Positions 3,699 through 26,847 are shown, counted from the stretch's first letter. The stretch is DNA of 27,599 bases from Synergistaceae bacterium (GCA_045642025.1 JAZUIB010000003.1:1-27599); one strand, 5' to 3'. The notes: a model not told the origin generated them from the sequence alone. Made by a program: numbers and translations.

Positions 3699-3716
3699 TG
3701 ACAAAAACCTCCTTCG

Positions 3717-4304: not shown

Positions 4305-4373
4305 ACAAGTGTTCCTCCTATTTTCAATATACTTTTAGTACAAAATACGAATATATGTTATTGATATAACCTC

Positions 4374-4702: not shown

Positions 4703-4727
4703 GTCCGAAAGCGCAAAACTTTCGGGC
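4703..4727 (-). terminator. Hairpin GTCCGAAAG-CGCAAAA-CTTTCGGGC; candidate terminator after small gene 4754..4987
   Basis: 9-bp stem with one G-U pair. On the minus strand the trailing sequence CTTTATGTAT is T-rich. It overlaps the spurious ORF 4486..4764. Confidence 0.5.
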
Positions 4728-4753
4728 TTCTAAATCTCACAAAAGCACATATC

Positions 4754-4987: not shown

Positions 4988-5105
4988 ATCTTCGTCCCCT
5001 TAAATTTGGATTTAGATTATTGCAGTATATTTTGCTCATAAATTATTGTACCGTTTGTACAATAATTTAATTTTAAACAGCAATTATTTAAATCTGGGAC
5101 AATAG

Positions 5106-5681: not shown

Positions 5682-5707
5682 ATTTATTCCCCTTTTCAAA
5701 AGAATAT

Positions 5708-6667: not shown

Positions 6668-6755
6668 CGTTTTCTCCTTATAATTCTGCAGTCCCGTGTA
6701 CAAAACTGAAAATTATATGCTACTCAAGTCTATCTTAGCACAAATATACTTCAAA

Positions 6756-7487
6756 TCAGAAAAATTTCATTTCAGTAATGCAGGTGTCCTGCCATCGGCT
6801 GCCGTCACGAACATCATTAATGACAATTTTTACAGTATCAGTAACAAGAGGGTGATCAAATGTTATTCTCTGCTCCCCCATACTATCCTGTATAGTGCAG
6901 TTTACGGTAGTTCCGTCTGCAGCTATAACACTTAGCGATACAGGAACTCCGTTTTTATAAAACAAATCAGATCTTTTCTGATGCCCTGCCCATATACTGA
7001 AGCCGTGTATTCTCTGCATACCGTTAAACTGGACACTAATATATTCCCCAATACCCATGCCTGCGACACCTTCCGCCCAACACGACTTAAAATTATTGTC
7101 AAAAATTTTTGAAGCATCATGAGAATATGAGTTTTCAATGTCGTATGACGACGCAGAAACAGACACAATGTTTACATTATTTGCGTCCGCAATATTATTC
7201 TGCTCATTTTCTGCAAATGACCTGGCAGTCGCAGTCTGCGAAGTATTCTGCGAAACAGAAGTGTCTTCACCGCTTTTATTGTCTTTACTGACAGATATAA
7301 CAGTAATTGCAGCAAAGACAATAACTGCAACAGACAGTATCGCTATCAACATATTTTTGTTTATTTTTACTGCATTGCTGGTTTGTTCTGTCTCTTTTTC
7401 ACTTTCTGTGGCTGTTGCGGCACCACAATTGGGACAATAACTCAGCATATCATCAAATTTGCTGCCACAGTAATGACATCGTTTCAT
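6756..7487 (-). CDS. Zinc-ribbon / TM / discoidin-like (F5/8 type C) domain protein
   Basis: ATG at 7487. The N-terminus is MKRCHYCGSKFDDMLSYCPNCGA. The TM helix is MLIAILSVAVIVFAAITVI. The C-terminal segment (about 130 aa: ...ASSYDIENSYSHDASKIFDNNFKSCWAEGVAGMGIGEYISVQF...TEMKFF) fits the discoidin pattern. Confidence 0.8.
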   Translation of the reverse strand: MKRCHYCGSKFDDMLSYCPNCGAATATESEKETEQTSNAVKINKNMLIAILSVAVIVFAAITVISVSKDNKSGEDTSVSQNTSQTATARSFAENEQNNIADANNVNIVSVSASSYDIENSYSHDASKIFDNNFKSCWAEGVAGMGIGEYISVQFNGMQRIHGFSIWAGHQKRSDLFYKNGVPVSLSVIAADGTTVNCTIQDSMGEQRITFDHPLVTDTVKIVINDVRDGSRWQDTCITEMKFF

Positions 7488-7525
7488 ATTTTGGGACCTC
7501 GCTTTATATTCTGATTATAAATGTA

Positions 7526-8380
7526 CTAATAACGCTTAATGCGCTGCAAAGCCTTAACAGCATTTTCTTCTCCCGCTTCCGCGGCTTTCTGATACCAATA
7601 TATAGCTCGGTTTATATCCTGTAAAACACCTTTCCCCGAATGATACATCGTACCGAGATTATACATAGCCGTAGTATTACCATTTTCCGCTGCCAAAGCA
7701 AACCATTTAACAGCCTCATCATTATTCACAGATGTTCCCCAGCCGTATTTATACATTGCTCCAAGGCGATTCATGGCATCTTTTTCCCCTTTTTCGGCAG
7801 CTTTACTGTACCATTCAAATGCCTTATAGTCATCTTTGTTAACACCTATGCCGTATTTATACATTACACCCAGACGTTTCATTGCCGTCGCATGGCCTTT
7901 TTCAGCTGCAGATTCAAAATAAAGCTTGGCTTCAGCATAATTTTTTGCATTATACAGATTGTTGCCTTTGCTGTAATCAGCATTTGAATCAATATCAGGT
8001 GCATTTTTTACCGAAACATTCTTATGCGGGGCTTCTGTATTAGAGTCAATATTACTTCTGACTACAGGAGTATTTTGTTCTTTCAACGTATTATTAGCAT
8101 TTACATTCTCCTGTACCACAGTATGAGATGCATTGGAGACAACTGCAGTACTAGATTGTGTATTCTGCTGAACAGATATCTTCGTACCACTTTGACTGCC
8201 TTTACTGACGTTTAACAAAACAAAAGTACCCAAAGCTACAACTGCACCGATCAGTATCGATATCAGCAGCAAATTTTTATCTAATTTTTCCGTATGACTT
8301 TCAAAAACTGTAGCACCACAGTTGGGACAATAATGCAGTGAACTGTCAAAATTGCTGCCACAGTATTGGCACTGTTTCAT
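7526..8380 (-). CDS. Zinc-ribbon / TM / Sel1-repeat (TPR-like) protein
   Basis: ATG at 8380 with RBS GGGAGA at 9 nt. The N-terminus is MKQCQYCGSNFDSSLHYCPNCGA. The TM helix is LLLISILIGAVVALGTFVLL. The C-terminus has at least 4 Sel1-type repeats (AMKRLGVMYKYGIGVNKDDYKAFEWYSKAAEKG...). Confidence 0.85.
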   Translation of the reverse strand: MKQCQYCGSNFDSSLHYCPNCGATVFESHTEKLDKNLLLISILIGAVVALGTFVLLNVSKGSQSGTKISVQQNTQSSTAVVSNASHTVVQENVNANNTLKEQNTPVVRSNIDSNTEAPHKNVSVKNAPDIDSNADYSKGNNLYNAKNYAEAKLYFESAAEKGHATAMKRLGVMYKYGIGVNKDDYKAFEWYSKAAEKGEKDAMNRLGAMYKYGWGTSVNNDEAVKWFALAAENGNTTAMYNLGTMYHSGKGVLQDINRAIYWYQKAAEAGEENAVKALQRIKRY

Positions 8381-8419
8381 GGCTTCAATCTCCCATACAT
8401 CATATATTGTCGAATATAT

Positions 8420-8448
8420 GCAGACAAGCGAAATAATCGCTTGTCTGC
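8420..8448. other. Perfect palindromic hairpin GCAGACAAGCG-AAATAAT-CGCTTGTCTGC between genes 8461..8961 and 7526..8380; possible terminator/attenuator or operator
   Basis: 11-bp perfect stem with a 7-nt loop. Flanking sequence is A/T-rich but has no clean U-tract. Confidence 0.4.
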
Positions 8449-8460
8449 GTGATGAGATTT

Positions 8461-8961
8461 CTATCTGATATACTGATGGCTGACCCAGCCTTTTCTGTCT
8501 TTGTATTCAACCTGATACCAAAATTCATTTATATTACCGTCAAGAGCATCAAAAAATTGGCATCCTGTGACCAAAACTTCTTCATTTCCGGGGAAACAAT
8601 ACAGCACTGGGGAGTTTTTACTGGCTTTTTGCCTCATATTAACCCTTGTTCCCTTAATATGACGCTTCGGAATCTGTACAAACTGACCATAAATCCAGCC
8701 ATTTTCCTCTCCGGTGCCTTCTTCAATATTTATATCAATCTTGTACCAGGGATATTTTTCACCAGGGTTATGGTGTTTTCCGCATAAAATAAAACTATTG
8801 CCTTTATTCATTTGATACAACACAGAGGCACCTTTGTTGGGATTTTTCCTTACATTGACATTGTTGCCTGTAACTATTGGACCCAGAAAAGATTCAGCCA
8901 ACGCAGTCCCCGCAATGAATACCGACAAAACCACAAGCAGCATAATAATTTTCTTCTTCAT
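8461..8961 (-). CDS. Secreted protein with two tandem bacterial SH3 (SH3b-like) domains
   Basis: The ORF-track start at 8967 is TTG. ATG at 8961 has RBS GGAGG at 8 nt. The signal peptide is MKKKIIMLLVVLSVFIAGTALA. There are two copies of the motif NVNVRKNP...GWIYGQFV / TRVNMRQKAS...KGWVSHQYI. Confidence 0.8.
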   Translation of the reverse strand: MKKKIIMLLVVLSVFIAGTALAESFLGPIVTGNNVNVRKNPNKGASVLYQMNKGNSFILCGKHHNPGEKYPWYKIDINIEEGTGEENGWIYGQFVQIPKRHIKGTRVNMRQKASKNSPVLYCFPGNEEVLVTGCQFFDALDGNINEFWYQVEYKDRKGWVSHQYIR

Positions 8962-8994
8962 AATCAAACCTCCAAAATTAATTTGAAATTATAT

Positions 8995-9459
8995 TTACTG
9001 CACATATTGTGCTGATACCCAGCCGTATTTGCCTTTGTAATAAATATACACCCAAGTACCGTCATAATATGTCGCATTGCCAAGCACCCAAACGTCCTCA
9101 TACCGAGGGAAACAATATAAAACCCCTGCTTTTTTGCTTGGTCCCTGTCTCATATTTACTCTTGAACCTGATATATAACTTTTATAAATATTTACATACT
9201 GTCCGTATATCCAGCCTGCGTTTACATCATATTCTGAGGAAACAAATCTGTACCATGGATATTCTTCACCCGGATTTTTATGCACTTCAATAATTTTACC
9301 GTAGTTTCCGCTATTAAGCTGATACATAACTCCAGCGTTTATATTCGGCGCACGTCTTACATTAACATGTGTGCCATTAACGGTAGGCAGAGTATAAGCA
9401 AAAGCGGTGCCGGTTAAAAGAACTGCCATAATTGCAAGTACTATAATAACTTTTTTCAT
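8995..9459 (-). CDS. Secreted protein with two tandem SH3b-like domains (paralog of 8461..8961)
   Basis: ATG at 9459 with RBS GAGGT at 9 nt. The signal peptide is MKKVIIVLAIMAVLLTGTAFA. The repeats are HVNVRRAPN...GWIYGQYV / SRVNMRQGPS...GWVSAQYVQ. Confidence 0.8.
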   Translation of the reverse strand: MKKVIIVLAIMAVLLTGTAFAYTLPTVNGTHVNVRRAPNINAGVMYQLNSGNYGKIIEVHKNPGEEYPWYRFVSSEYDVNAGWIYGQYVNIYKSYISGSRVNMRQGPSKKAGVLYCFPRYEDVWVLGNATYYDGTWVYIYYKGKYGWVSAQYVQ

Positions 9460-9520
9460 TTTTCATTACCTCACAAACATAAATGTAACTTACAAATTTT
9501 TATACAAATTCATTCTGCCA

Positions 9521-9994
9521 TTACCAATCAGCGATTGCACTAAACACAATCCTGTCAACACTGCCATCCAGCACCTGTTGTTTAACCGGTTTTGTGCAAC
9601 AGACAATTACATGCCCCTGTTTATCGCAGATAGCAGCATAATCAACCACCATCTGTCTGCCGTTAAGTGCAAATTTTGCTTTCACATACATATAAAAAGG
9701 TGTCTGATTTAACCTGTATTTATTCCTTACTGAATTTTTTATACTCTGTGTGCGGTATGCAATCAGTTGGTCTGCATAGTAATAATTGCCATTTCCGGAC
9801 GTTGGAGCATAGTAATATGCCTTATCTGCTGTAAGTTTTGCCCTTTGCCAGTTTGACCTAAGGTTGACAAACAAAGGACTTCCGCAAGGCTTGAAGTGCT
9901 GTGTTCCGGGAACAAAATATACTGCCGAAACTTCAGGCACAAAGACCACTGTAAGCAATATAAACGTAAATAAAAATAGCAGTTTCTTTTTCAT
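9521..9994 (-). CDS. Secreted hypothetical protein (Tyr/Cys-containing, about 157 aa); start uncertain (9994 vs 10018/10027)
   Basis: The open frame runs 9521..10027. ATG at 9994 gives a classic signal peptide MKKKLLFLFTFILLTVVFVPEVSA. The RBS is weak. Confidence 0.65.
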   Translation of the reverse strand: MKKKLLFLFTFILLTVVFVPEVSAVYFVPGTQHFKPCGSPLFVNLRSNWQRAKLTADKAYYYAPTSGNGNYYYADQLIAYRTQSIKNSVRNKYRLNQTPFYMYVKAKFALNGRQMVVDYAAICDKQGHVIVCCTKPVKQQVLDGSVDRIVFSAIADW

Positions 9995-10128
9995 ATACAC
10001 TTTCACGTCATTATTCATAATAAACATATGTTATATATAAAAATACCTCACTCTGCGCAGTAATATTTCGTAATATCAGAGCATATTTTACCAGCGACAG
10101 AATGAAGTATTAAATTACATAATAACAA

Positions 10129-10995
10129 TTATCTGAGATTTATATCAATATTTTTTTGCTTTCCATCCGGATCCATAAACACAACTGTTATACCCATATG
10201 ATCCTTTGCACATTGTCTGATATGGTCTCTGAGCTCCTGAGCCGAGCAGTTTTTCGTATTTATATTATTAACCATGTAAAGTTCTGTGCCCGCCATAGCC
10301 CCTAAATTTGCCATTGCGCTTCCTGGCCTGACACTTTCGATTATAAGATACCCTTCCCTGCTTTTAGCTTTGTCGGATACATCAAAACCTGCAGATTCAA
10401 GCATACTGAACTGCGTATCATTGGAAAGCAGCACACTTTCACTAGACATATGTATTTCTCTGCGCACTTTTTCTGCCAAATCCATATCCGGTACACGTGC
10501 AGTTACAGTTATATATCTTCCAGTTGAATCCAGTTCAAAATCGACTTCTTCTCCACCATCCATGCGTGCTGTAAGCACATCATTATTATTGATTTCTGCA
10601 GACACATTATTATCCATAAACATTCTTCTGGTGGCTTCCATTGCACGTTGCGCACCGACCTGCGATGCCGCAGCAACAAAATCTTCTGCATATCCTGTAG
10701 CATGGTCAATCAGCGTTTTCTGCACTTTTATTCTCTCTTCATTATTCTGGCTGTTATTATCGGCGGCGCCAAGCAATGCACCCAATACAGCTAATCCTGC
10801 CACAATACCTGCGGCAGTACCTATTGATGAGTCATCTGAACTGCTGTGATGGTGATGGTGGTGATGCTGCGGGCGTGGATGCGGACGTGAATGTTGCCGC
10901 TGTGGCTGCGGGCGCGGATGATGCCCGCGCGGACTGGCAAATACAGGTGTAGCGGCAAGTAGAATTATCATGAGTACAGCTATAACTTTTTTCAT
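10129..10995 (-). CDS. Signal-peptide protein with His/Pro-rich tract (PRPQPQRQHSRPHPRPQHHHHHHHSS), hydrophobic Gly/Ala segment and C-terminal PDZ-like domain
   Basis: ATG at 10995 with a strong RBS AAAGGAGAGG. The signal peptide is MKKVIAVLMIILLAATPVFA. A run of 7 His follows. The C-terminal 75 aa (GYLIIESVRPGSAMANLGAMAGTELYMVNNINT...ITVVFMDPDGKQKNIDINL) fit the PDZ fold pattern. Confidence 0.8.
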   Translation of the reverse strand: MKKVIAVLMIILLAATPVFASPRGHHPRPQPQRQHSRPHPRPQHHHHHHHSSSDDSSIGTAAGIVAGLAVLGALLGAADNNSQNNEERIKVQKTLIDHATGYAEDFVAAASQVGAQRAMEATRRMFMDNNVSAEINNNDVLTARMDGGEEVDFELDSTGRYITVTARVPDMDLAEKVRREIHMSSESVLLSNDTQFSMLESAGFDVSDKAKSREGYLIIESVRPGSAMANLGAMAGTELYMVNNINTKNCSAQELRDHIRQCAKDHMGITVVFMDPDGKQKNIDINLR

Positions 10996-11039
10996 TGCGA
11001 CCTCTCCTTTATTTACGAATTAAACCGTTTTTAATAGTT

Positions 11040-11609
11040 TTAATATTCGTTCTGTATCCTGCGAAGATTTTCTTCTCTGCGTTTTTTGGCTGCTTCTCTT
11101 GCGGCATTGTGTTCCGAGTTACTCGCCGAACTTTTAACAACTGAATTTGTATTAGGTTTTGAGGAGGTAACTTTATTTTTGTTCACGCGCGGAACAACTA
11201 CCGATTTAGTCGTTTTTCTTGATTTATCAATCCTTTTTATTTTCTTTTGAGCAACGGATACCCGCGGTTGTTTTTTGTCAGTTTTAACTATCACGGCATT
11301 ATGAACAACCTTTTGTTCCTCTGTTACAGTATGCCGAACAGTATCAGGCACTGCAGATTTATCCGGTTCGTTATCTGTTACACATAAAAAATACATAAGA
11401 CAACATACTGCTATAACAGCAAGCAGTATAAATATTTTTTTCCCGTTCTTGACGGACTTATCAGACTTCTCGCTCTGCTCCTGTATAACTCGTTGCGTGT
11501 ATGCCTGTTTAGCAGCCTCTTCTGAATATGTAGCACCGCAATAGGGACAATAACTCAAACCACTGTCAAAAAATTCCCCGCAGTACGGACATTTTTTTGT
11601 ACCTGCCAT
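11040..11609 (-). CDS. Zinc-ribbon / TM protein with Lys-rich basic C-terminal tail
   Basis: ATG at 11609. The N-terminus is MAGTKKCPYCGEFFDSGLSYCPYCGA. The TM helix is IFILLAVIAVCCLMYFLCV. About 110 aa of K/R/S/V-rich low-complexity sequence follow. Confidence 0.75.
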   Translation of the reverse strand: MAGTKKCPYCGEFFDSGLSYCPYCGATYSEEAAKQAYTQRVIQEQSEKSDKSVKNGKKIFILLAVIAVCCLMYFLCVTDNEPDKSAVPDTVRHTVTEEQKVVHNAVIVKTDKKQPRVSVAQKKIKRIDKSRKTTKSVVVPRVNKNKVTSSKPNTNSVVKSSASNSEHNAAREAAKKRREENLRRIQNEY

Positions 11610-11740
11610 TATAGTTATCTCTGCTCCTTATCTACATTATCCATTCGATTTGTATCACATCTTTTATTAATTCTGCTTACTTGTTTCAGATCTATTTTGG
11701 ACATCTTGACCTTTTGTATTTTTTTCATCTTCTTTATTTT

Positions 11741-12622
11741 TCAGAAATTCGCTAATTTTGTCTGTGTTGCTTTTAATGCTAGTAACTGATGCACACCTCT
11801 ATCTTGACTGCCTTTTTTCTTTTTATCTTCAGTACGTTCTTTGTTGCTTTCTCGCGGACCACTATCCTGAGTGGTGCTTTTTGCAGGCGGCGTAATTTTG
11901 CCATTTCTGACTATAACTATCTTCATCCCGCTTTTAATATATTTCTTTAACTCATGAACATCTGTATTTTTAAGCCTTATGCATCCTTCAGTCGCATCCT
12001 TGCCGATTGATTTAGGGTCATGAGTTCCGTGAATTCCTATTCCGTTCCAGCCTGTATGAAGTCTGATAAACCATGGACCATAGGCATTTTTTATAACACC
12101 TTTACCGTCATGGAAATCATGTGACCATGTGCTAGCATCCTGTACTGACTGCACATAAAAATCGTCACCTTCGGGTGTACGAAAGTCCCCAGACTTGGTT
12201 TTATTTCCGTGATTTTTTCCTGTTGCAACTCCATACGTTTCTATCGGCTTTGGATTTTTGCCGTCCATAACATATAGCTTATGTGTCCCTTTATCAATCA
12301 ATATCCATTTTCCCTTTTCAGGGCGACGGTAACCGCTGGTTTGCACCGTCTGTGATGAAGACCCGTTTTGTTTTTCGGGGTTCTTTGGTTCTTTAGAAAC
12401 ATTTTTTTGTGCAGCAGAACTATTGCTTGCATTACCAGTTGATTTTGAAGGCGTCTCCATTTTTTTCTCACTTGATGTAGTTTTTTCACGTTTTTCTACA
12501 TCAAAACAAAAAGCTACTCTGTCAAGCGCAAGACCTGCAAAAACCCCTGCGACAAATACCAATGATAGTATTATTAGCGTTTTTTTGCGTTTCTTTGTGC
12601 GAGCGATTTCATTAGTATACAT
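11741..12622 (-). CDS. L,D-transpeptidase (YkuD-family catalytic domain) with N-terminal TM anchor, Ser/Lys-rich linker and K/E-rich C-terminal tail
   Basis: ATG at 12622 with RBS AAGGAGA. The TM helix is LIILSLVFVAGVFAGLAL. The catalytic signature is ...GIGIHGTHDPKSIGKDATEGCIRLKNTDVHEL (His...Cys motif of YkuD). Confidence 0.85.
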   Translation of the reverse strand: MYTNEIARTKKRKKTLIILSLVFVAGVFAGLALDRVAFCFDVEKREKTTSSEKKMETPSKSTGNASNSSAAQKNVSKEPKNPEKQNGSSSQTVQTSGYRRPEKGKWILIDKGTHKLYVMDGKNPKPIETYGVATGKNHGNKTKSGDFRTPEGDDFYVQSVQDASTWSHDFHDGKGVIKNAYGPWFIRLHTGWNGIGIHGTHDPKSIGKDATEGCIRLKNTDVHELKKYIKSGMKIVIVRNGKITPPAKSTTQDSGPRESNKERTEDKKKKGSQDRGVHQLLALKATQTKLANF

Positions 12623-12637
12623 ATTGTCTCCGTCTCC

Positions 12638-13204
12638 TTATTTTACAAACTGACCGTATACCCAACCTTCATATCCTTTATAAGAAATTTTGCACCAAGG
12701 ATATTTTCCGTCATACACTGGAGATACCTCAGAAACATAGACTTCTTCATAACCAGGGAACTGGAATATTACACCTGCGGACAAACTCGGATACTGCCTC
12801 ATATTAACATGTGTACCGTTAATTAAACACCAGCCGGTATGATTATATGATTGTTTTTTTTCTGGAGGCGCTTCAGTTTCAGCCGAAGCTGAACTCGAAT
12901 AATTGTTAGAAGAAGATGTATTACTTACAGCACTATTGTCTATCGTCACATTGCTATCCGTTATCTTTACACCTATGCTGAAAGCAAGTATTACAAGCAT
13001 AATTATTGCAGCCGCTATTCCTATTATTTTTGATGTGTTATCACGTTGCTGAGCACTTGGCTGCGTATATGGCGTCTGTTGAGTTTGTCGCGGTTGCTGC
13101 ATGATTGGAGTCTGTGCTGACACCTTCGGCAATACTGCGCCACAGTGTGGACAATAGTTCAGTTTATCATCTACAACGGAATCACAATACAAACACTTTT
13201 TCAT
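12638..13204 (-). CDS. Zinc-ribbon / TM / Ser-rich linker / C-terminal SH3b-like domain protein
   Basis: ATG at 13204 with RBS AAGGGA at 9 nt. The N-terminus is MKKCLYCDSVVDDKLNYCPHCGA. The TM helix is IIGIAAAIIMLVILAFSIGV. The C-terminus THVNMRQYPS...GYEGWVYGQFVK resembles the SH3b domains of 8461/8995. Confidence 0.8.
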   Translation of the reverse strand: MKKCLYCDSVVDDKLNYCPHCGAVLPKVSAQTPIMQQPRQTQQTPYTQPSAQQRDNTSKIIGIAAAIIMLVILAFSIGVKITDSNVTIDNSAVSNTSSSNNYSSSASAETEAPPEKKQSYNHTGWCLINGTHVNMRQYPSLSAGVIFQFPGYEEVYVSEVSPVYDGKYPWCKISYKGYEGWVYGQFVK

Positions 13205-13232: not shown

Positions 13233-13925
13233 TTAGAAACTGCCTCTGCTGTTTATAGCGCGTCCATGTTTGCGTTTGGCGAATAGATCTTTCAATTCTG
13301 TAAGAACAGATTTTATTTTCTCTTCTTCCTCAGCAGAACTAAATAATGTTTCAAGTTCTTTCAGACTGGAGTCGATATCTTTATCTATATCACCAAAGAC
13401 TGTTTTATCCGAGTAATGCGCATCTTCACAAAGTTGTTCAAGCTCTGACCTGTAATCGCTGCATTTGCTGTCAGATTTCAGCTGCATTAGTCTAGATTCT
13501 ATATCCTGCATAAACGCAAATTTTACTGCTAATGCATCATCAGAGGTCTTTATTTTTGAAGCCGCGAGATAGAAAAGAAGGAATAATACACATAAAGCAA
13601 CAATTCCTACCGCCTGATGCATACTGTACCGTGTGACTTCGTCATAGTATGAATCACGCATAAATACCATTATAAGCGTAAATAGAAAATATAGCACAGA
13701 AACTGTACTGAAAGCACTTATATTAAAAGCTCTTGCATAGTCCAGTACAATTACAACCAACGCGCTGAACAGTACCAATTCAGCAATAATCACAAACAAA
13801 AGGGAAATAACATCTATTCTGTTAGCCTGAATTCCCCAGTCGCTACAGAAAAAAATCGCCAGTGTTGTCAGTAATATTAACAATTCTATAACAATTAAAG
13901 AAGTTATTTTGGAACGTTCTGTCAT
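13233..13925 (-). CDS. Four-TM membrane protein with acidic coiled-coil C-terminal domain (possible YdjH-like partner of the SPFH protein)
   Basis: ATG at 13925 with RBS GGAGGGG. Four hydrophobic helices sit in the first 125 aa. About 100 aa of E/D/K/L-rich helical sequence follow. It is 15 nt downstream of the SPFH gene. Confidence 0.75.
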   Translation of the reverse strand: MTERSKITSLIVIELLILLTTLAIFFCSDWGIQANRIDVISLLFVIIAELVLFSALVVIVLDYARAFNISAFSTVSVLYFLFTLIMVFMRDSYYDEVTRYSMHQAVGIVALCVLFLLFYLAASKIKTSDDALAVKFAFMQDIESRLMQLKSDSKCSDYRSELEQLCEDAHYSDKTVFGDIDKDIDSSLKELETLFSSAEEEEKIKSVLTELKDLFAKRKHGRAINSRGSF

Positions 13926-13940
13926 ATTGAACCCCTCCGC

Positions 13941-15245
13941 TTAAAGCAATTTTGTCCCGCATTCAGGGCAAAATTTTGTACTCTGTTCTATTTCCTTACC
14001 GCAGTTAGCGCATTTTTTGATTAGTGCAGCTCCGCATTCAGGGCAAAATTTAGCTTCTGGGGTAATTGCAGCTCCGCATTTAGGACACGGTTGAGGGAGT
14101 GTTTTGCCGCAGGCAGCACATACTTTTGCGTTATCATCTAAATCAGCGCCGCAGAACGGACACGGATTATAGTGGTCACCGCACTGAGGGCAGAATTTAG
14201 CAGTCTTCGGATATTCTGTACCACATTTATTACAAGTAATCATATCTGCAGATTTTTTGTTTTCTCTTGTGCTTGTATCTTCTGTATCTTCACCGCAGTG
14301 TCCGCAGAATCTAATACTGACAGGCATATCGCGGCCGCATTTAGGGCAGCGCTTCATTGGGGCTGTATTGATATTCTGCGCCAATGTACCCATCTGGTTG
14401 CCCATAGGAGCACCTATTCCAACTCCCATTCCCAAACCTATGCTAGCCCCCATTAGACCAGCCTGCCCAGAGCTCGGATTTGTGGCAGCACCTTCCAGTG
14501 TATCAAATGACCGCTCTTGAACATAGCTGTATCCAATAATATCCATCTCTGCACGCTTTGATAAAGCATCGCGGAGTTTAACAACTGCAGGGTCACTTTC
14601 TGGAACGTTAATATCGTTAACATAGAAGTTAATCAATCCAATGCCATAGTCGCTGAATATCTTTCCCATACGCTCTTTAAGAAATTCTGAAAGTTCATCA
14701 AGATATGCATTGATTTCAAGAATACTTACCTGTTTTTTAACCAAATACTGTGATATTGCATCTTTTGCTTTTGTTAAATAAAGACCTTTGAAATACAACT
14801 GTATGTCTGCTTTATTAAATCCATGAAGCGTACCTACAAGTTTCATAAGAAATTTTCTTGAGTCTTCTATTTTAATACCAAACTGTCCAAAAGCACGCAC
14901 AGATATAAGCAGCTTATATTTAGGATCCTGTAACTGTATCGGCGAACTGGTTCCCCATTTTATATCAAGAGAATGTATTTTGTTTACATACCATACTTCA
15001 GCAGTGAACGGTGATTTACCGCCAAACGGAATATTAACAATTTTGTTTAAAATCGGGATATTGGCAGTATCAAGAGTATGTCTGCCTGGCCCCATCAAGT
15101 CACAGGCCTGACCGCCTTTAAACAGTATTGCTTCCTGTGATTCATTAACTATCACCTGCGTCCATGTTCCTAACTCCTGACAAGGGAACTTCCACGCAAA
15201 TGTTTCCGGCCCGCCGTCATATTTGACAACATTAATTATAGCCAC
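13941..15245 (-). CDS. SPFH/band-7 (COG4260, YdjI-like) domain protein fused to five C-terminal double zinc-ribbon repeats
   Basis: The ORF-track start (GTG at 15254) abuts the RBS. GTG at 15245 lies 8 nt after AAAGGAG and gives MAIINVVKYDGGPETFAWKFP..., matching the YdjI-family N-terminus. A Gly/Met-rich linker follows. Then come 5 CxxCG-x8-11-FCxxCG units (residues about 300-437). Confidence 0.85.
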   Translation of the reverse strand: MAIINVVKYDGGPETFAWKFPCQELGTWTQVIVNESQEAILFKGGQACDLMGPGRHTLDTANIPILNKIVNIPFGGKSPFTAEVWYVNKIHSLDIKWGTSSPIQLQDPKYKLLISVRAFGQFGIKIEDSRKFLMKLVGTLHGFNKADIQLYFKGLYLTKAKDAISQYLVKKQVSILEINAYLDELSEFLKERMGKIFSDYGIGLINFYVNDINVPESDPAVVKLRDALSKRAEMDIIGYSYVQERSFDTLEGAATNPSSGQAGLMGASIGLGMGVGIGAPMGNQMGTLAQNINTAPMKRCPKCGRDMPVSIRFCGHCGEDTEDTSTRENKKSADMITCNKCGTEYPKTAKFCPQCGDHYNPCPFCGADLDDNAKVCAACGKTLPQPCPKCGAAITPEAKFCPECGAALIKKCANCGKEIEQSTKFCPECGTKLL

Positions 15246-15366
15246 TGTCAACACTCCTTTTTATAATGATGTTACTAATATAATATATTTTTTTGATAAT
15301 TTAATGTACTTGCAGTCCAATCATACTATAGCAAAACATTCGTACATGGAAAGTACTTCGCCAATT

Positions 15367-15396
15367 ATTATAATTTAGTATATTTTATGTTGTCAA
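15367..15396 (-). promoter_or_regulatory. Consensus sigma-A-type promoter (-35 TTGACA, 18-bp spacer, -10 TATAAT) about 115 nt upstream of the SPFH gene; likely drives the accessory cluster
   Basis: Minus strand reads TTGACAacataaaatatactaaatTATAAT. It sits in an AT-rich ORF-free spacer. Confidence 0.5.
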
Positions 15397-16091
15397 TTAC
15401 ATTTTTACACAATATGTGTATTTACCAGCATTTAAAATTTAAAATTTATAATTTATTTTTTTACAAATGCATTGCCGCTTATCTGCGACTATTCATCTAC
15501 ATAGCTTCTAGGACTTATGAATATTGCATATTTTTTCGTCAATTATATCGATTCCCTCTCTGTTATAGTAAACAGATCCCTGCAGAAGACATTTTTTCTT
15601 CAGTATATTTTGCAAAACAAATGTTTCATGTTCAATGGCAAATGTAACGTGCCTGTACAGCAACAAATATTTATTTTATACAGTCTTCGTCAAGGTTATA
15701 ATATTTTACAGTTGCTTTGAATATTCTCTCATTATTTTTCAGTTTGACACGTCTGCTGTAATTAAGATTGAGTTTCTGTTCACCAATATATACTGCAATG
15801 TATGTTTATTCAGTATTGATTGTTACATTTTCTGAAAATTTACTACTGAAATGTACAGTTGTTTTCATATTGCTTTTGAATTTTCCGTTGACCGAAAGTG
15901 CTTTTTCTGTCAGAACCTTTGAACAATGTATCTCGTTCTGGTTTTCGTAGTCCGTTAGCGGTCCTTCGGAAAGTCTGTATTCTTCTCACGTCTTAACTAA
16001 TTTTACTGGTTCGTTTTTGTGTTTCTCTCATCTTATTTGGGTCTTACAACGAGAAGACTTTTAATAGAACAATAATGCTATATAAAATTTA

Positions 16092-16119
16092 AGACAGCCT
16101 TCCGAAAGGAAGGCTGTCT
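16092..16119 (-). terminator. Perfect palindromic hairpin AGACAGCCTTCC-GAAA-GGAAGGCTGTCT immediately downstream of ntpD; intrinsic terminator of the V-ATPase operon
   Basis: 12-bp stem with a GAAA tetraloop. On the minus strand the trailing sequence TAAATTTTATA is T-rich. It lies 8 nt after the ntpD stop. Confidence 0.75.
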
Positions 16120-16126
16120 TTGTCTG

Positions 16127-16753
16127 TTAGTGGTTTCTGACGATGTCTTTGATTACCATGAGTCGGCTGAGTGTAGAGCGTTCTTGTTCTTCGAGTTTCA
16201 TCGAGATGGAATGCACCGCTTCGGTGAACTGTGGTATCATAACATGCTCTAGCGCGTTGACGCGACGTCTCGTGCGTTCGATTTCAAGAGACATCGATTT
16301 CAGTGCCTTTTCGTCTGCGGCAAGTCTGACAAGTTGCGGCATGATGGTAATAAATTGTTCAAGCGCAACATCAAAACTGCCGGGGGATATTCCAAGTCCG
16401 TAGCTGAGTTCTGTTGACTGCGGCGGAATTTCAAATACAGGCACTTTAACACTCATTATGTTTTTGTAGGTCGCATTTACCTGAAGGTTACCACCGGAAC
16501 ACATAAGGGTCTGGTCAAGGATTTCGGGAAGTGTCTGCGCGCTGGCGAGAAGGAAACCTTTGTAACAACTGCCTATCTCGTTTTCTATTTCTTTGCGCAG
16601 TTTCCAAACTGCTTTCGCGCGTTCAAGGAATTCTTTTACGAGCGCATCCTGTTTGTCTTTGAGTAGTTTGTGTCCGCGTTTAGCAACCACGAGCTTTCTC
16701 TTGATACGGGAAAGCTCCATGCGATTGGGGTTAACGTTCAGTGCCTTTACCAT
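16127..16753 (-). CDS. ntpD: V-type ATP synthase subunit D
   Basis: 208 aa. ATG with RBS AGGTGA. It is the last gene of the ntp operon. The coiled-coil-rich sequence MVKALNVNPNRMELSRIKRKL... is typical of the central-stalk D subunit. Confidence 0.9.
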   Translation of the reverse strand: MVKALNVNPNRMELSRIKRKLVVAKRGHKLLKDKQDALVKEFLERAKAVWKLRKEIENEIGSCYKGFLLASAQTLPEILDQTLMCSGGNLQVNATYKNIMSVKVPVFEIPPQSTELSYGLGISPGSFDVALEQFITIMPQLVRLAADEKALKSMSLEIERTRRRVNALEHVMIPQFTEAVHSISMKLEEQERSTLSRLMVIKDIVRNH

Positions 16754-16763
16754 TGAAGGTCAC

Positions 16764-18161
16764 CTATGCTTCTTTGTCGAGTACTGCGCCAAGCAGGTAT
16801 TTTTCGATGTATTCGTCTCTTACGCGTTTGAGTTCACGTTTCGGAACGATTGTAAGAAGCTTCCAGCCGAGTGCAAGTGTCTGTTCGATTGTTCTGTTCT
16901 CATATTCGCCCTGACGTACGTATTCATCTTCAAAGCGATCTGAGAATTTTGCAAATGCTTTGTCTTCTTCGCTGAGTGCGGATTCACCGAGGATAACCGC
17001 AAGTTCTTTTGCGTCTTTTCCGCGTGAGTAGGCAGCAAAGAGCTGATTCATAAGGTCTGCGTGGTCCTCGCGTGTTTTGCCTTTGCCTATACCTTTGTCT
17101 TTCAGTCGTGAAAGAGATGGCATAACGTCAACCGGCGGATAGATGCCTTTGAGGTGAAGTGCGCGTGAAAGGATAATCTGTCCTTCAGTTATATAGCCTG
17201 TAAGGTCAGGAATCGGATGCGTTTTGTCATCTTCAGGCATTGTAAGTATCGGAAGCTGCGTAATTGAGCCTTCTCTGCCGCTGAGTCTGCCTGCTCGTTC
17301 GTACATAGTGGCAAGGTCAGTGTAGAGGTAGCCCGGATATCCGCGGCGTCCTGGGACTTCTTTGCGTGCTGCGGAGATTTCGCGAAGAGCTTCGCAGTAG
17401 TTTGTAAGGTCTGTGAGTATGACAAGGACGTGCATACCGTGCTCAAATGCAAGGTATTCTGCGCATGTCAAGGCAAGTCTCGGCGTTGCGATACGTTCGA
17501 TTGCAGGGTCGTCCGCAAGGTTGACAAACATAACGGTGCGTTCGAGTGCGCCTGTTTTACGGAAGTCCTCCATGAAGAAGCTGGCTTCTTCGTATGTAAT
17601 ACCCATGGCTGCAAATACAACAGCAAAATTGCCCGCGCTGCCGCCGAGAACTGTTGCTTGGCGTGCAATCTGCGCTGCCATGCGGTTGTGCGGCATACCT
17701 GAGCCTGAGAATATTGGAAGTTTCTGTCCGCGAACAAGTGGGTTCATGCCGTCGATTGTTGAGATACCTGTCTGTATGAATTCTGACGGGTAGTCGCGTG
17801 AGAATGGATTCATCGGGTTTCCGTTTACATCAAGGCTTGTTTCGGCAAGTATCGGCGCACCTCCGTCAATGGGAGCGCCTCGTCCGTTGAATATGCGACC
17901 AAGCATATCTTTTGAAACAGGGAGTTTGAGAACGTCTCCAAGGAAACGTACTTTTGTTGACGCAACGTCAATGCCCGAACTGCCTTCGTAAACCTGTACG
18001 AGGGCTTTATCTCCGTCAAGTTCAAGAACTTTGCCGCGGCGCTTTTCGCCGTTTGCAAGGCGTATTTCAGCAAGTTCATCGTAGCTGACGTCTCCGACGC
18101 GTTCAACCATCATAAGAGGGCCGGAAAGGTTGGAAACGGTTTTATACTCCTTAGGCAACAT
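16764..18161 (-). CDS. ntpB: V-type ATP synthase subunit B (regulatory)
   Basis: The ORF-track GTG at 18170 is unlikely. ATG at 18161 has RBS GGAGGTGA at 5 nt and gives [20 protein letters not shown]..., matching the NtpB N-terminus. It overlaps the ntpA stop. Confidence 0.95.
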
Positions 18162-19944
18162 TTGTATCACCTCCGGTTGTTACTTTGCCAATCGCACGTT
18201 TGATTTCATCTTCAAGCTGATCGAGTTTTTCAAGTTCTGTTTCGAGCGTGTAACGCATACGGGCAATCTGGTCGCGAACGTCAAGTTCAGTTACCGCTGT
18301 AAGCTGCGCGCCGCGTTTGAGTGCCTGCATTGCAAGATGATGGAACGTGAGGATGTTTCTGAGCATCTTGAACTGTTTGTCCATTGACGCATAGGTGTCA
18401 ATTTCATGGAAGGAATTCTGATGCAGAAAGTCTTCGCGTATTGATTTTGAGGTTTCAAGCACCATGCGTTCTTCTTTTGAAAGAGCGTCTATACCGACAA
18501 GACGCACGATTTCGTTAAGTTTGTCTTCGTCTTCGAGAAGTCCCATGGCTTCAGTGCGCGCCGTGCTCCATTCGCCGTCATAGATTGCATCCCAGTATTC
18601 GCCAAGTGTCTGAGCATAGAGCGAATAGCTCGTGAGCCAGTTAACTGCCGGGAAATGGCGCTGATATGCAAGCGCTGAATCAAGTCCCCAGAAAACTTTG
18701 GTAACGCGGAAGGTGTTCTGTGTGACAGGTTCTGAAAGGTCACCGCCCGGAGGTGAAACTGCGCCGATAACAGAAACAGCACCTTCTCTGCCGTCTTTTC
18801 CAAGGCAGATTGCACGGCCTGCGCGTTCGTAGAAGGATGCAAGTCGCGTACCGAGGTATGCAGGGTATCCTTCTTCACCGGGCATTTCTTCGAGTCGTCC
18901 TGACATTTCGCGAAGCGCTTCCGCCCAGCGTGAGGTTGAGTCTGCCATGAGAGCGACTGAGTAACCCATGTCGCGGAAATATTCTGCGATTGTGATGCCT
19001 GTATAAACGGAAGCTTCACGGGCTGCAACCGGCATATTGGACGTGTTTGCTATAAGAAGTGTACGTTTCATAAGCGGTTGCCCCGAGTTCGGGTCAATGA
19101 GTTCGGGGAACTCGCGAAGAACGTCGGTCATTTCATTGCCGCGTTCGCCGCAGCCGATATAAACAACGATTTCGGCATTTGCCCATTTTGCAAGCTGGTG
19201 CTGAATAACTGTTTTGCCGCTTCCAAAAGGCCCAGGAACACAAGCTGTGCCTCCGCGGGCGATAGGGAAGAACATGTCAACAACGCGCTGACCTGTTGTA
19301 AGAGGAATTTCAGGAGCAAGGCGTTTTACAACGGGACGCGCTTTACGCACAGGCCATCTCTGGAGCATAGCGACGTCATGGTCTGTGCCTTTTTCGTCTG
19401 TGATAACGGCGATTGTTTCTTCAACGTTGAAGTCGCCGCTTTTTATTTCTTTGACTTTTCCTTTGAGTCCGACAGGAACCATAACCTTGTGGTCAACAAG
19501 GATTGTTTCCTTTACGATGCCGAGGAAGTCACCCTCTGCCACTTCATCGCCTGCTTTGACAAGCGGTTTGAAGTCCCAGCGTTTTTCACGGTCGATTGCT
19601 GGAACACTGATGCCGCGAAGGATATACGGTGACTTTGCGGCACGTTCAATGCTTTCGAGTGGACGCTGAATTCCGTCGTAGAACTGTTCAATAAGACCGG
19701 GCGCCAGCTCAACGCTGAGCGGCTGACCGGTTGAAACTACAGGCTCACCTGTTGCAAGACCTGACGTTTCTTCATAAACCTGAAGCGACGCTGTGTCGCC
19801 TTTAAGCTCGATAATTTCACCAACAAGCTCTGCTTTGCCGACCTTGCAGACGTCAGACATGCTTGCGCCTGTCATGCCGCTTGCAATAACAAGAGGGCCT
19901 GATATTTTTGAAATATATCCTGTAATGTTTTTAGGAGCAGCCAT
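18151..19944 (-). CDS. ntpA: V-type ATP synthase catalytic subunit A
   Basis: 597 aa with no intein. The P-loop GPFGSGKT is present. The N-terminus [19 protein letters not shown] is typical of the A subunit. Confidence 0.95.
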
Positions 19945-19967
19945 ATATTTCGCCTTCCCTTTCTCTG

Positions 19968-20303
19968 CTAATTGTCGCCAAAGATGTCCATGCCGACCGC
20001 GCGTTCGACGGTTTTTCGAATCGCTTCAAGTCCTATTCCCATGGAGCCGCTTTGGTTTGGTACAGGTATAATGCACATATCTGAAGTGCTGTCTATATCT
20101 TTGATGATGTCCGTGTTTGTGGCATAAACTGCTTCTTCGACAAATACAGCCACATAGCGTTCTCCCGAAAAATTCGTGAGGATACCATAGAGTGAGCTTT
20201 TGTTTTCCTCTGTAATGACAACTGTGTCAAGTCCGATTGCTTTGAACGGAAGCACGCTGTCGTAGCTGCCTATTGCAGCCATTTTTGACGTATTATCCGG
20301 CAT
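19968..20303 (-). CDS. ntpG: V-type ATP synthase subunit F
   Basis: 111 aa. ATG with RBS GGAGG at 9 nt. The motif [19 protein letters not shown] is the F-subunit signature. It sits between ntpC and ntpA as in E. hirae. Confidence 0.85.
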
Positions 20304-21306
20304 TGCGCAGCAACCTCCTTACTTGACTGTTGTCTTTTCCGTCTTTCGAAACTAAAATCATGCGGATATTTTTGATTTCTGTTTCCTTTTTCAGAAGGTA
20401 AGCTAGTACGTTCTCCGCAGCAGGCGCACCTTTGCAGGTTTTTGCCAACTGTTCAATGCAGAATTCGTCGAGTGCCTTTTCCAAACCAAGGATAAGTTCG
20501 GAGAAGTTGTCTGAAGCATCAATTTTTCCAAGCACTGTACCGAGGTCAGAGAAAACAAGCGCTCTTGACCAGCTTTCAAACGGCTCTGCTATAAGTGCCG
20601 CAAGCTGCTGTACTGAGATATTTCCACCTTCGTAGAGGAACGGCAGCGCGCGTGCAGCATCGTAGCCAAAGCGTTTAAGCCTAAGCAGCGAACGAATGTT
20701 TTCACCATCGATTTTTGCTCGCACCCAAGCGATTATGCCGGGCATTTCAAGTTCGCGCGCCAGCCAAAGCATCGCAGCAAACAGCCCTTTGTCAAGCAAA
20801 CGTTCAACCTCAAGAATATCATGATTTTGTTCCCAAAGAGCAACAATCTGCGGAACAAGAAGATTGAGACCGTACGGCAGCAGTGCGTATTCTTCTGTCT
20901 CAATTTTTGAAACAAGTTCGTCAACCGGATAGGAAGCAAGAGAGGTGAGCAGATCAAGTCTCTGTTTTCCGCCCTCTTTTTTGTTAAATCCGCTTTTGAG
21001 CATGACCTTAACGTTATGGAAATCATACTGCAGTCTGAGGATGTTTACAAGCTCTTTGTCCGGTACAAATGAACGAAGTTCTTCATAGGTAGCAAGCAGG
21101 TCGGCTTCAAGCGCTTTTTCGTAATTTATTACTCCGCCTGACTGAGCCGCCAGCGACGCGGAATAGGAAGTCTCTTCAAGTACCTTGAGTGTCGCCTGAA
21201 TATCTTCCGCATCAAGCATTCGCTGTATTACTGCGGCGTCAAGAAGACGAAGCTCCATTGCACGAATGCGTGCCGAGCAGTAGCCGTAAGCTTCCTGACG
21301 TGACAT
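20293..21306 (-). CDS. ntpC: V-type ATP synthase subunit C (d-subunit homolog, rotor/stator coupling)
   Basis: 337 aa. ATG with RBS GGAGGTG at 6 nt. It overlaps the ntpG start by 11 nt. Confidence 0.9.
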   Translation of the reverse strand: MSRQEAYGYCSARIRAMELRLLDAAVIQRMLDAEDIQATLKVLEETSYSASLAAQSGGVINYEKALEADLLATYEELRSFVPDKELVNILRLQYDFHNVKVMLKSGFNKKEGGKQRLDLLTSLASYPVDELVSKIETEEYALLPYGLNLLVPQIVALWEQNHDILEVERLLDKGLFAAMLWLARELEMPGIIAWVRAKIDGENIRSLLRLKRFGYDAARALPFLYEGGNISVQQLAALIAEPFESWSRALVFSDLGTVLGKIDASDNFSELILGLEKALDEFCIEQLAKTCKGAPAAENVLAYLLKKETEIKNIRMILVSKDGKDNSQVRRLLRNAG

Positions 21307-21317
21307 TAAAGCACCTC

Positions 21318-21899
21318 CTATGCCGTCGGGAAAAGACGTTTAATAACGTCGGTTTCCTTCTGTTCCTGTGCGACCTGAAGAAGCATATCCCATGAGCAGT
21401 TGGCAATTATTTTGTCATGCTCAAGGATAAAACCTCCGCTGATGTCTGCTTTGTCTTCTGAAAGCACAAGAGCTGCGCCCGCTTTTTTGTTGTAGGCATC
21501 AACCCATGCTTTGTCAATGTATTTTTCGTCTGCGGAAAGCTGAAGTTCTCCTTCTTTTGCGCCGAGTTCGTCAAGCAGTCTCTCACAGAAGTCAAGATAA
21601 TCGTCCTTCGAAAGATTGCTGAGTTGTTCAAGCGCTGCTTTATAAACGTCAGCTATAAGATTGCGTTTTGCCTGAAGCTGCATTTTGTTAATGTCAAGTC
21701 CGGCAACAATCTCCCTGCGACGGAAAATTTCAGGACGCTCAGCGTCAAAGCGCGCCTTGAAATCAGCACGGATGCTTTCACATTCGGCTTCTGATTTCTT
21801 CAGTTGCACAGCTGAGTCTTCTCTTGCTTCCGCAAGAATCTTGTCAGCTTCGCCCTGCGCGTCCTTTTTGATTTTTTCCGTAATCTGAGCCAAAGACAT
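21318..21899 (-). CDS. ntpE: V-type ATP synthase subunit E (peripheral stalk)
   Basis: 193 aa. The N-terminal half is charged and helical (MSLAQITEKIKKDAQGEADKILAEA...). Confidence 0.85.
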   Translation of the reverse strand: MSLAQITEKIKKDAQGEADKILAEAREDSAVQLKKSEAECESIRADFKARFDAERPEIFRRREIVAGLDINKMQLQAKRNLIADVYKAALEQLSNLSKDDYLDFCERLLDELGAKEGELQLSADEKYIDKAWVDAYNKKAGAALVLSEDKADISGGFILEHDKIIANCSWDMLLQVAQEQKETDVIKRLFPTA

Positions 21900-21912
21900 A
21901 GTCTTTACCCGA

Positions 21913-22410
21913 TTAGAATTTACCGATACCGGTCAGCATAAGAATACTGACAAGAAGTCCGAAAACGGCGTAGGTTTCGCACATGGCGGGAAGGATGACC
22001 GCTTTACCGATTTCTTCCGGAGGTTTTGAAATCATAAGGATTGATGCTGCAGATGATTTGCCCTGCCAAATGGCTGAATAGAAGCCAACAATTGCGATAG
22101 GAAGGCATGACAGTCCAATTCCGAGACCTTTCCAAAGTCCGCAAAGCTCGCCGGCGCCGAGAAGTCCCGCATTCTGAAGAGCGAGAACCGCAACGAGAAG
22201 TCCATAGATACCCTGTGTGCCTGGGAGTGCAAGAAGAACGAGTGCGTAACCAAATTTCTTCGGGTCCTCAGTCATAATTCCTGCTGCCGCCTCATTTGCA
22301 AGGCCTATGCCCCATGCAGAGCCTGCGCCTGCAAAACCTACTGCCAAAGCTGCGCCTAATACTGCAAGAACAGGACCCAACTGCTGTGTCATTGCTGAAA
22401 TAACGTCCAT
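21913..22410 (-). CDS. ntpK: V-type ATP synthase subunit K (16-kDa proteolipid, 4 TM)
   Basis: 165 aa, Gly/Ala-rich with four helices. RBS GGAGGT at 7 nt. The segments PGTQGIYG ... IWQGK ... AMCETYA correspond to the E. hirae NtpK ion-binding residues. Confidence 0.9.
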   Translation of the reverse strand: MDVISAMTQQLGPVLAVLGAALAVGFAGAGSAWGIGLANEAAAGIMTEDPKKFGYALVLLALPGTQGIYGLLVAVLALQNAGLLGAGELCGLWKGLGIGLSCLPIAIVGFYSAIWQGKSSAASILMISKPPEEIGKAVILPAMCETYAVFGLLVSILMLTGIGKF

Positions 22411-22476
22411 AAGATTACCTCCGTTGTTGTGATTTGAATTTGATTTTATGTTAATTATGAAACTTGTGCGCTTTGA

Positions 22477-26842: not shown

Positions 26843-26847
26843 ATATT

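Follow-up and report, generated by a model that had tools for sequence, protein, structure and literature searches.

The subject of this analysis is a minus-strand gene for an SPFH protein that ends in five zinc ribbons, located in a stretch of 27,599 nucleotides (nt) from a Synergistaceae bacterium (GCA_045642025.1 JAZUIB010000003.1:1-27599), which is referred to throughout as the window. The gene is followed by one for a membrane protein with four transmembrane (TM) helices, and, judged by sequence comparison, the locus belongs to a widespread operon family that is sister or parallel to the pspA-ydjG-ydjH-ydjI unit (pspA-samGHI) of Bacillus. The central features are listed below; SPFH residue numbers are those of the open reading frame (ORF) of 437 amino acids (aa) counted from its first GTG.

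13941..15245, minus strand: SPFH gene with five zinc ribbons, 434 aa, GTG start
14595..15179, minus strand: SPFH domain Band_7_1 (PF13421), residues 26-220, Pfam E 1.3e-44
14364..14495, minus strand: Gly/Met-rich low-complexity linker, about residues 254-297, sequence beginning GAATNPSSGQAGLMGASIGLGMGVGIGAPMGNQMG
13944..14348, minus strand: array of five four-Cys ribbons, CxxC-x10-CxxC, from Pfam and motif
13233..13925, minus strand: four-TM partner, 230 aa, 15 nt past the SPFH stop

The uninterrupted minus-strand frame at 13941..15254 gives the 437 aa of the ORF list, and the true start is likely the GTG at 15245, because the ribosome-binding site in front of it (AAAGGAG-N8-GTG), the N-terminus MAIINVVKY, which fits the family consensus MAII.VVKY, and the resulting length of 434 aa, equal to that of the database copies P0001 and P0271, all agree. 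A first-pass annotation had placed the SPFH domain and the ribbon array on one polypeptide at 13941..15245, and these coordinates are right, there being no frameshifted separate ribbon gene. The protein scores 152.8 bits against PF13421, for which the gathering cut-off is 24, and thus belongs to that family; Band_7 (PF01145) also matches in Pfam (E 8.2e-6). No TM or hairpin segment rose above the Kyte-Doolittle threshold in a 19-residue window, and the protein is predicted to be soluble. The family profile matched no solved SPFH structure by sequence at E <= 0.01, and NCBIfam gave no informative model for the proteins of the locus.

At least 5474 homologues were found at E <= 1e-5. The best 120 of these at least 5474 proteins are 427-454 aa long, share 63-83% identity with the window protein and align over 98-100% of the query (99% with two exceptions); their named sources are Clostridium, Desulfosporosinus, Eubacteriaceae, Oscillospiraceae, Synergistaceae, Deltaproteobacteria and Solirubrobacterales. 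As a fusion the protein is unremarkable and already annotated in databases, where the five-ribbon homologues carry the label 'SPFH domain-containing protein' and, as an older label, 'putative virion core protein'. SPFH-ribbon fusions were already known from YdjI and from archaea, in which SPFH proteins with a coiled coil and a ribbon have been noted (PMC10936438).

Pfam matches to DZR, Zn_Ribbon_1 and Zn_ribbon_3 cover the SPFH protein from about residue 300 to 437, and the ribbons start at residues 303, 341, 365, 390 and 415. Each unit is one single four-Cys ribbon; the array had been described as five double zinc ribbons, a count that does not stand, and by the formula CxxCG-x8-11-FCxxCG, which is accurate. 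All 20 cysteines are invariant among 28 aligned homologues, exactly five ribbons are present in all 120 of the best homologues, and five are likewise found in 73 of 83 non-redundant loci. In an ungapped comparison, each ribbon of the window protein is closest to its positional counterpart in other taxa, with the exception of ribbon 4, which is unscorable by position since a one-residue insertion in other taxa offsets the comparison. Because five position-specific ribbons are common to homologues of several phyla, the array is old and widespread and not the product of the recent internal duplication that had been suggested. The near-identity at codon level on which that suggestion was based does not extend to whole units, which within the window protein share just 49-65% nucleotide and 33-50% amino-acid identity. 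An exact repeat of 20 nt, CCGCATTCAGGGCAAAATTT, does exist, at 13957-13976 and 14032-14051 and not at 13970 as first given, and encodes KFCPECG in ribbons 4 and 5. Its codons are identical although the ribbon units are just 65% identical overall, and it could be a short gene-conversion tract or an effect of codon bias. As a separate observation, the family profile hits DZANK1 (double zinc ribbon and ankyrin repeat protein 1; PDB 11xu_G1), a ciliary protein of eukaryotes, at E 5.8e-6 over the array.

To our knowledge, YdjI (SamI) is the sole Band_7_1 SPFH member that has been studied, and it is usually treated as a PspA adaptor. For comparison with it, the pspA-ydjG-ydjH-ydjI region was taken from Bacillus stercoris and three sister species, where it was located by the published ydjG primer (PMC8581546), and B. 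stercoris served as the reference for YdjG, YdjH and YdjI. Its YdjI has 323 aa and comprises a Band_7_1 domain (148.7 bits), a Gly/Met-rich linker and one ribbon, FCPNCG-x7-FCPNCG, the layout of linker and C-terminal ribbon being also found in the literature (PMC8581546; PMC11237479; bioRxiv 10.64898/2026.02.06.704340); the YdjI orthologues of four genera carry one C-terminal ribbon each. The window protein is 22% identical to it over 317 aa (BLASTP E 2e-15), in keeping with the YdjI-like SPFH domain that had been proposed, and no dissimilarity to Band_7/COG4260 proteins was encountered. In its linker, many columns are invariant across the family alignment, and the linker aligns with that of YdjI. 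Because the alignment to YdjI is collinear from the SPFH domain through the linker to the first ribbon, the array is an expansion of the YdjI-type C-terminal ribbon module. The two proteins share PF13421, the lack of an anchor, the order SPFH-linker-ribbon and the Pfam types of the ribbons (Zn_ribbon_3, Zn_Ribbon_1, DZR), and both are encoded beside membrane proteins, one of them ribbon-bearing. They differ in that YdjI/SamI has one ribbon and 323-345 aa, whereas the window protein has five and 434 aa, in that their partners are unlike, and in that pspA is absent from the window operon. The window protein is therefore no strict YdjI/SamI orthologue, as defined by a single ribbon, about 320-345 aa and a pspA-ydjG-ydjH-ydjI unit.

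The YdjI-like SPFH domain, the membrane protein and ribbon membrane protein encoded downstream, and the failure to find PspA are the points in favour of the reading in which YdjG was recently fused onto YdjI, the four-TM protein is the YdjH equivalent, and the whole is a compacted YdjGHI core that lost PspA. This proposal of the first-pass annotation is highly improbable, since a linker and a ribbon of the same type are already present at the end of YdjI and the ribbons of the array are conserved position by position across phyla. The ribbons of YdjG are of the TFIIB type (PF08271), which the array does not match, and in a pairwise BLASTP alignment of YdjG with the array (E 0.002) the cysteines alone align, so that there is no real similarity. 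YdjG/SamG, which has two TFIIB-type ribbons, an NTF2-like domain and a C-terminal TM helix (PMC11237479), resembles the ribbon-TM proteins of the window in being a ribbon-presenting membrane protein encoded with a YdjI-family SPFH protein; it differs from them in ribbon family, topology and domains and is not the source of the five-ribbon array. The supposed YdjH equivalent fares no better, as set out below. Moreover, the true four-gene unit of Bacilli occurs unchanged in Clostridia, namely in Anaeromicropila, Hathewaya and one metagenome contig, where its SPFH protein invariably carries a single ribbon; with the B. stercoris locus, the loci that show the unit are L008 and L097-L099. Because this intact pspA-ydjGHI unit also occurs in Clostridia, the window locus belongs to a separate operon family, and the two operon types are parallel systems built on paralogous SPFH proteins. 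The feature is real, and its earlier framing was over-interpreted.

No PspA, TPM or PF08271 protein is encoded in the window. For PspA/IM30, as the first-pass annotation had stated, the result was negative both among the window ORFs by Pfam and in a six-frame search at E <= 1 with a PspA hidden Markov model (HMM); no upstream pspA was found, and the same six-frame search at E <= 1 found no PspA in any of 83 related loci.

The four-TM partner consists of four hydrophobic helices, a cytoplasmic acidic helical domain (residues 128-215 have a net charge of -12) and a basic C-terminal tail. No Pfam model matches the window protein or any of 80 family members, and a word-indexed search returned no relative beyond the partner itself; the family emerged from an exhaustive phmmer search, which gave 188 cluster representatives, nearly all of 220-240 aa and aligned from end to end. 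The window protein scores 200.8 bits against the resulting family HMM and is orthologous to the neighbours of the SPFH genes of Clostridium and Desulfosporosinus (BLASTP E 1e-20 to 1e-38). The best-conserved features of the family are cytoplasmic, being a YE..KYSDK motif and the extreme C-terminus, ...R(K/N)xE....KRGGF-COOH, which is the most conserved part of all; the window protein ends ...NSRGSF where the consensus has KRGGF. An alignment-based AF2 model is all-helical (pLDDT 94.6, pTM 0.80), with TM4 running on as a 55-residue helix into a cytoplasmic bundle with three more helices; this model was used in place of a single-sequence one, which was poor (pLDDT 60.7). The four TM helices and the acidic tail had been anticipated, and the long acidic coiled coil is replaced in the model by the helical bundle.

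In many loci from termite gut, the partner gene is split or shortened. TM-only partners of about 147 aa cover HMM positions 1-138 (L013, L016, L021, L065), and cytoplasmic-only partners of about 130 aa retain TM4 and the cytoplasmic domain, HMM positions about 100-233 (L046, L069, L072, L077). Because these forms cover one half each, the two halves of the partner look like separable modules.

YdjH is a TPM_phosphatase protein (PF04536, E 1.1e-23), and the earlier identification of the partner as YdjH-like could not be upheld: BLASTP gives E 5.5, hhalign of the 80-sequence profile gives a probability of 0.2%, and no TPM (PF04536) match occurs in the window partner or any of 80 family members. 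The two proteins are not homologous. YdjH/SamH has a TPM domain outside the cytoplasm and a single, C-terminal TM helix, in contrast to the four TM helices and cytoplasmic bundle of the partner, and its gene precedes the SPFH gene, while that of the partner follows it. What they share is the position beside an SPFH gene, a plausible role as anchor, and a cytoplasmic C-terminal tail that ends in a basic residue followed by Gly-x-Phe. This tail is the only sizeable cytoplasmic part of YdjH and has the conserved end ...SGSRG[SK]F-COOH, to be compared with KRGGF in the partner family (window 13233..13925; B. stercoris L008 3747..4508; proteins P0122-P0270 and P0281-P0329). The basic-Gly-x-Phe ends of the two unrelated families may be a shared docking motif. 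YdjG, for its part, ends in GGGF or GGEF. Experimentally, the soluble YdjI depends on the membrane proteins YdjG and YdjH for its localisation, YdjH binds YdjI in two-hybrid assays, and YdjI is required for PspA focus formation at the membrane (PMC8581546).

Gene order was examined in loci drawn from metagenomes, viral contigs and named genomes, in which ORFs were called and searched with HMMs built here; the informative set comprises 41 non-redundant loci with at least 2.5 kb downstream of the SPFH gene. The partner is adjacent to the SPFH gene in 40 of these (immediately downstream in 39 and immediately upstream in one), and in 65 of 79 loci before de-duplication. In 39 of 41 loci, the first 3 kb downstream contain a zinc-ribbon ORF of any kind. 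In 38 of the 41 a member of one canonical third-gene family is found within this distance, and an N-terminal-ribbon ORF in five. Products of the canonical third gene are about 180-230 aa long and combine 2-3 TM helices with a conserved cytoplasmic segment and a ribbon at the C-terminus; two paralogues are often present. Per locus, ORFs with a ribbon motif number 1.0 within 1 kb past the SPFH gene and 0.5 in the kb after that, against 0.00-0.08 per kb in the upstream flanks. In two loci, L016 (about 6290-7610) and L092 (about 12700-14000), the five-ribbon SPFH gene is followed at a distance of about 1.3 kb by another ORF, of about 435 aa and with three ribbons, which may encode a paralogous SPFH protein of the same operon. 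The searchable literature on COG4260, PF13421 and SPFH with zinc ribbons nowhere describes the five-ribbon operon, the partner family or the linkage to ribbon proteins, and holds no experimental data on the five-ribbon clade.

The window is one of just three of the 41 loci without the canonical third gene, the position of which is held by the first of the following two genes.

12638..13204, minus strand: zinc ribbon (ZnR)-TM-SH3b protein, SH3_3 E 1.5e-10, Zn_ribbon_3 E 4e-5
11741..12622, minus strand: TM-anchored YkuD L,D-transpeptidase, YkuD E 2.4e-18

The intergenic gaps from the SPFH gene to the partner, SH3b and YkuD genes are 15, 28 and 15 nt, the first two as previously annotated along with the proteins themselves, and the YkuD gene is probably in the same transcript as the SH3b gene. 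The SH3b protein has its ribbon at residue 4, a TM segment at residues 55-86 and a periplasmic SH3b domain. The nearest relatives of the window show a like replacement, by a single ZnR-TM-YkuD fusion (L001) and by a ZnR-Sel1 protein (L100). The nearest approach of the window to the third-gene family is a ribbon-driven match (E about 1e-3) some 8 kb away.

A reading that takes the ribbons to be incidental is that of a classical SPFH regulator in the style of HflK/C-FtsH or stomatin-NfeD, in which the four-TM partner is a regulated channel or transporter client. SPFH proteins commonly enclose or regulate co-encoded membrane clients, as with HflK/C-FtsH and QmcA-YbbJ (cited in bioRxiv 10.64898/2026.02.06.704340), and the TM domain of the partner can stand alone in some loci. 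SamI, the phenotypes of which are independent of PspA, has been proposed to restrain the activity of SamGH (bioRxiv 10.64898/2026.02.06.704340). The window protein has in common with classical assemblies (HflK/C, FloA, FloT, stomatin-NfeD) the SPFH fold family and the expected oligomeric membrane scaffolding; it differs from them in that it lacks a TM or hairpin anchor as well as the long coiled-coil wall, and in that neither NfeD nor a protease is its partner. Pfam gave no NfeD match in the neighbouring window ORFs, so that this is no SPFH-NfeD operon, and no protease or transporter domain lies beside the gene. The best-conserved features of the partner, YE..KYSDK and the KRGGF tail, are cytoplasmic and not intramembrane, and the strong and specific co-occurrence of ribbon-bearing membrane proteins indicates that the ribbons matter. 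A client model of this kind is thus considered unlikely.

The same ribbon proteins might instead be membrane-tethered regulators, with ribbons that bind nucleic acid and an SPFH scaffold that controls their release. The ribbon type of YdjG is known from DNA-binding proteins (Popp et al., PMC9239133), loss of SamI leads to global transcription changes that depend on SamH (bioRxiv 10.64898/2026.02.06.704340), and between TM and ribbon the members of the canonical third-gene family possess a conserved cytoplasmic domain. The ribbon proteins of the window, on the other hand, have about 25-50 cytoplasmic residues, their large domains (SH3b, Sel1, F5/8C) being periplasmic, and no helix-turn-helix or other DNA-binding Pfam domain was found, which leaves this proposal with little probability.

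An anti-phage or abortive-infection module, with an SPFH-ribbon sensor and a four-TM effector that disrupts the membrane, was also weighed and appears very unlikely. The C-terminal region of the partner gives a weak PADLOC match to AbiTi (E 1.4e-4 over 42 residues), in Desulfosporosinus an integrase is encoded some 3.5 kb further downstream, SPFH homologues occur on six IMG/VR contigs, and the old 'putative virion core protein' names point in the same direction. The six viral contigs are nevertheless to be set against at least 567 metagenome loci, the SPFH protein itself has no PADLOC match, and no nuclease, NTPase or typical defence partner is present. Identity of 63-69% across distant phyla and varied housekeeping contexts are also unlike patchy, fast-evolving defence islands. 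A viral origin, as implied by the old label, was rejected in view of the same small number of viral contigs.

The explanation preferred here, to which somewhat better than even chances are given, is that of a PspA-independent SPFH scaffold under the membrane with a four-TM anchor and a multivalent ribbon adaptor. The SPFH protein would oligomerise beneath the cytoplasmic membrane, and the four-TM partner would hold the oligomer there, as a functional analogue of YdjH and no homologue of it. Because the end of the YdjH tail resembles the KRGGF-COOH of the partner family, the partner tail may serve as a docking element. The five ribbons would form a multivalent adaptor, by which membrane proteins tagged with a ribbon are brought together in a single membrane patch. 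In the Synergistaceae lineage, the proteins so gathered would be those that bear periplasmic peptidoglycan-related domains (SH3b, beside the YkuD L,D-transpeptidase), and the likely output would be that envelope and cell-wall functions are organised or controlled locally without PspA. Clients of this kind would echo the mislocalised cell-wall synthesis of ydjG and ydjH mutants (PMC8581546). Confidence in a membrane complex of the SPFH protein with its partner is higher than in the picture as a whole, and in recruitment of ribbon by ribbon it is much lower.

Several points weigh against this explanation. Zinc ribbons of the Pfam type of the array are very common in the membrane proteins of anaerobes, and we know of no citable precedent for the binding of ribbon to ribbon. 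Fold searches with the partner gave no functional clue. The resemblance between the tails of YdjH and the partner rests on three or four residues, and in distant YdjH homologues the arginine is lost and the end becomes GGGSF. The PspA HMM was built from four sequences and about 10 kb were covered on each side, so that a pspA gene elsewhere in the genome is possible. Finally, the window is a rare variant of its family and, having no canonical third gene, may not behave like the family norm.

A more specific form of the preferred explanation, which is offered tentatively and is on balance doubtful, is that cytoplasmic ribbons of the DZR/Zn_ribbon_3 type are a sorting tag, and that the five-ribbon SPFH protein is a hub, held by the partner via its KRGGF tail, which collects any membrane protein with a matching ribbon into a patch organised by SPFH. 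If this were true, YdjG and YdjI of Bacillus would be a minimal form of the same principle, the nine ribbon-tagged envelope proteins of the window (SH3b, Sel1, F5/8C, DUF805 and others) would amount to an enlarged set of clients, and a function would be obtained for a very common and unexplained module of bacterial membrane proteins.

The locus opens the way to a much larger sister clade of YdjI/SamI, the database proteins of which exceed 5000 and come from Clostridia, Synergistota, Desulfobacterota and the gut communities of termites or animals. This clade keeps the SPFH-linker-ribbon design, PspA was not found at 83 of its loci, and it has conserved partners of its own that lack a Pfam model, which fits the PspA-independence of the SamI phenotypes. 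It thereby offers a second and simpler system for asking what soluble SPFH proteins and ribbons do. Since the fusion itself is nothing new, the value lies in the definition of the operon, the conserved tail of the partner and the strong link between the SPFH protein and ribbon membrane proteins.

The remaining features of the window lie upstream of the SPFH gene and in the region that follows the YkuD gene.

15367..15396, minus strand: putative sigma-70-like promoter TTGACA-18-TATAAT, 12 of 12 consensus positions (consensus match only), about 120 nt upstream of the SPFH start
16091..16120, no strand assigned: strong hairpin terminator past the V-type ATPase (V-ATPase) D gene, 13-bp stem with 7 GC pairs
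16127..24477: complete V-ATPase operon, from Pfam and the ORF list
11040..11609, minus strand: protein with N-terminal ZnR, one TM and a basic low-complexity tail, from Pfam and TM scan
7526-8380, minus strand: ZnR-TM-Sel1 protein
6756-7487, minus strand: ZnR-TM-F5/8C protein
5708-6703, minus strand: ZnR-TM protein
5106-5699, minus strand: DUF805-ZnR protein
3717-4304, minus strand: ZnR-TM protein
3096-3704, minus strand: ZnR-GYF-TM protein
2097-2705, minus strand: DUF805-ZnR protein

Because the terminator and the promoter-like site separate it from the V-ATPase operon, the SPFH unit appears to be a transcription unit of its own. A functional link to the adjacent V-ATPase, an idea that came from a STRING remark in PMC12335938 and was further prompted by an H+-PPase gene upstream of the Clostridium SPFH locus, was rejected, V-ATPase genes being near just one other locus of about 90. 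The window is an NCBI contig in full (27.6 kb), and its V-ATPase A subunit shares a 90%-identity cluster with proteins named Synergistaceae bacterium and Candidatus Equadaptatus faecalis. Base composition changes in a step, with a GC content of 0.45-0.51 in the V-ATPase region (16001..24000) and of 0.33-0.42 in the SPFH operon and the envelope island beyond it; this could reflect a horizontally acquired island or differing levels of expression.

That island, at 2097..13204 on the minus strand, is a long co-directional series of genes for small envelope proteins. Nine ribbon-bearing membrane proteins, each with one cytoplasmic ribbon and TM, follow the partner gene in all, seven of them at 2097..8380, and because they have ribbons in common with the SPFH system and lie in the same orientation, these seven may be part of it. 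Their ectodomains vary over the island (SH3b, Sel1, F5/8C/NADase_transloc, GYF, DUF805 and unassigned ones), and five of the proteins have a near-identical N-terminal module, C.YCGS.FDD.LSYCP.CGA, which suggests that they are paralogues in which the cytoplasmic tag has stayed constant and the ectodomains vary. The proteins at 12638-13204 and 11040-11609 share an N-terminal ribbon and a single TM with the TcaA-like ZnR-TM proteins of Firmicutes (NCBIfam TcaA E about 2e-4, residues 1-80); with 20 bits against a cut-off of 550 and unlike ectodomains, this is a resemblance of a single module.

The two DUF805 proteins (2097..2705 and 5106..5699) are paralogous and carry a C-terminal ribbon. They look like products of the canonical third gene in their size and layout, but match the HMM of that family through the ribbon alone (E about 1e-3). 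Three SH3b proteins, at 8461..8967, 8995..9459 and 12638..13204 on the minus strand, are also paralogous (mutual phmmer E 1e-16 to 1e-23), two being secreted with tandem SH3_3 domains and one anchored with a ribbon. The gene at 10129..10995 on the minus strand encodes a protein of 288 aa that has a signal peptide, repeats of the HPRPQ type and seven consecutive histidines, and for which neither Pfam nor NCBIfam gave a match. Close to the end of the contig, at 26766..27027 on the minus strand, are two genes for tRNA-Met and one for tRNA-Leu(UAA).

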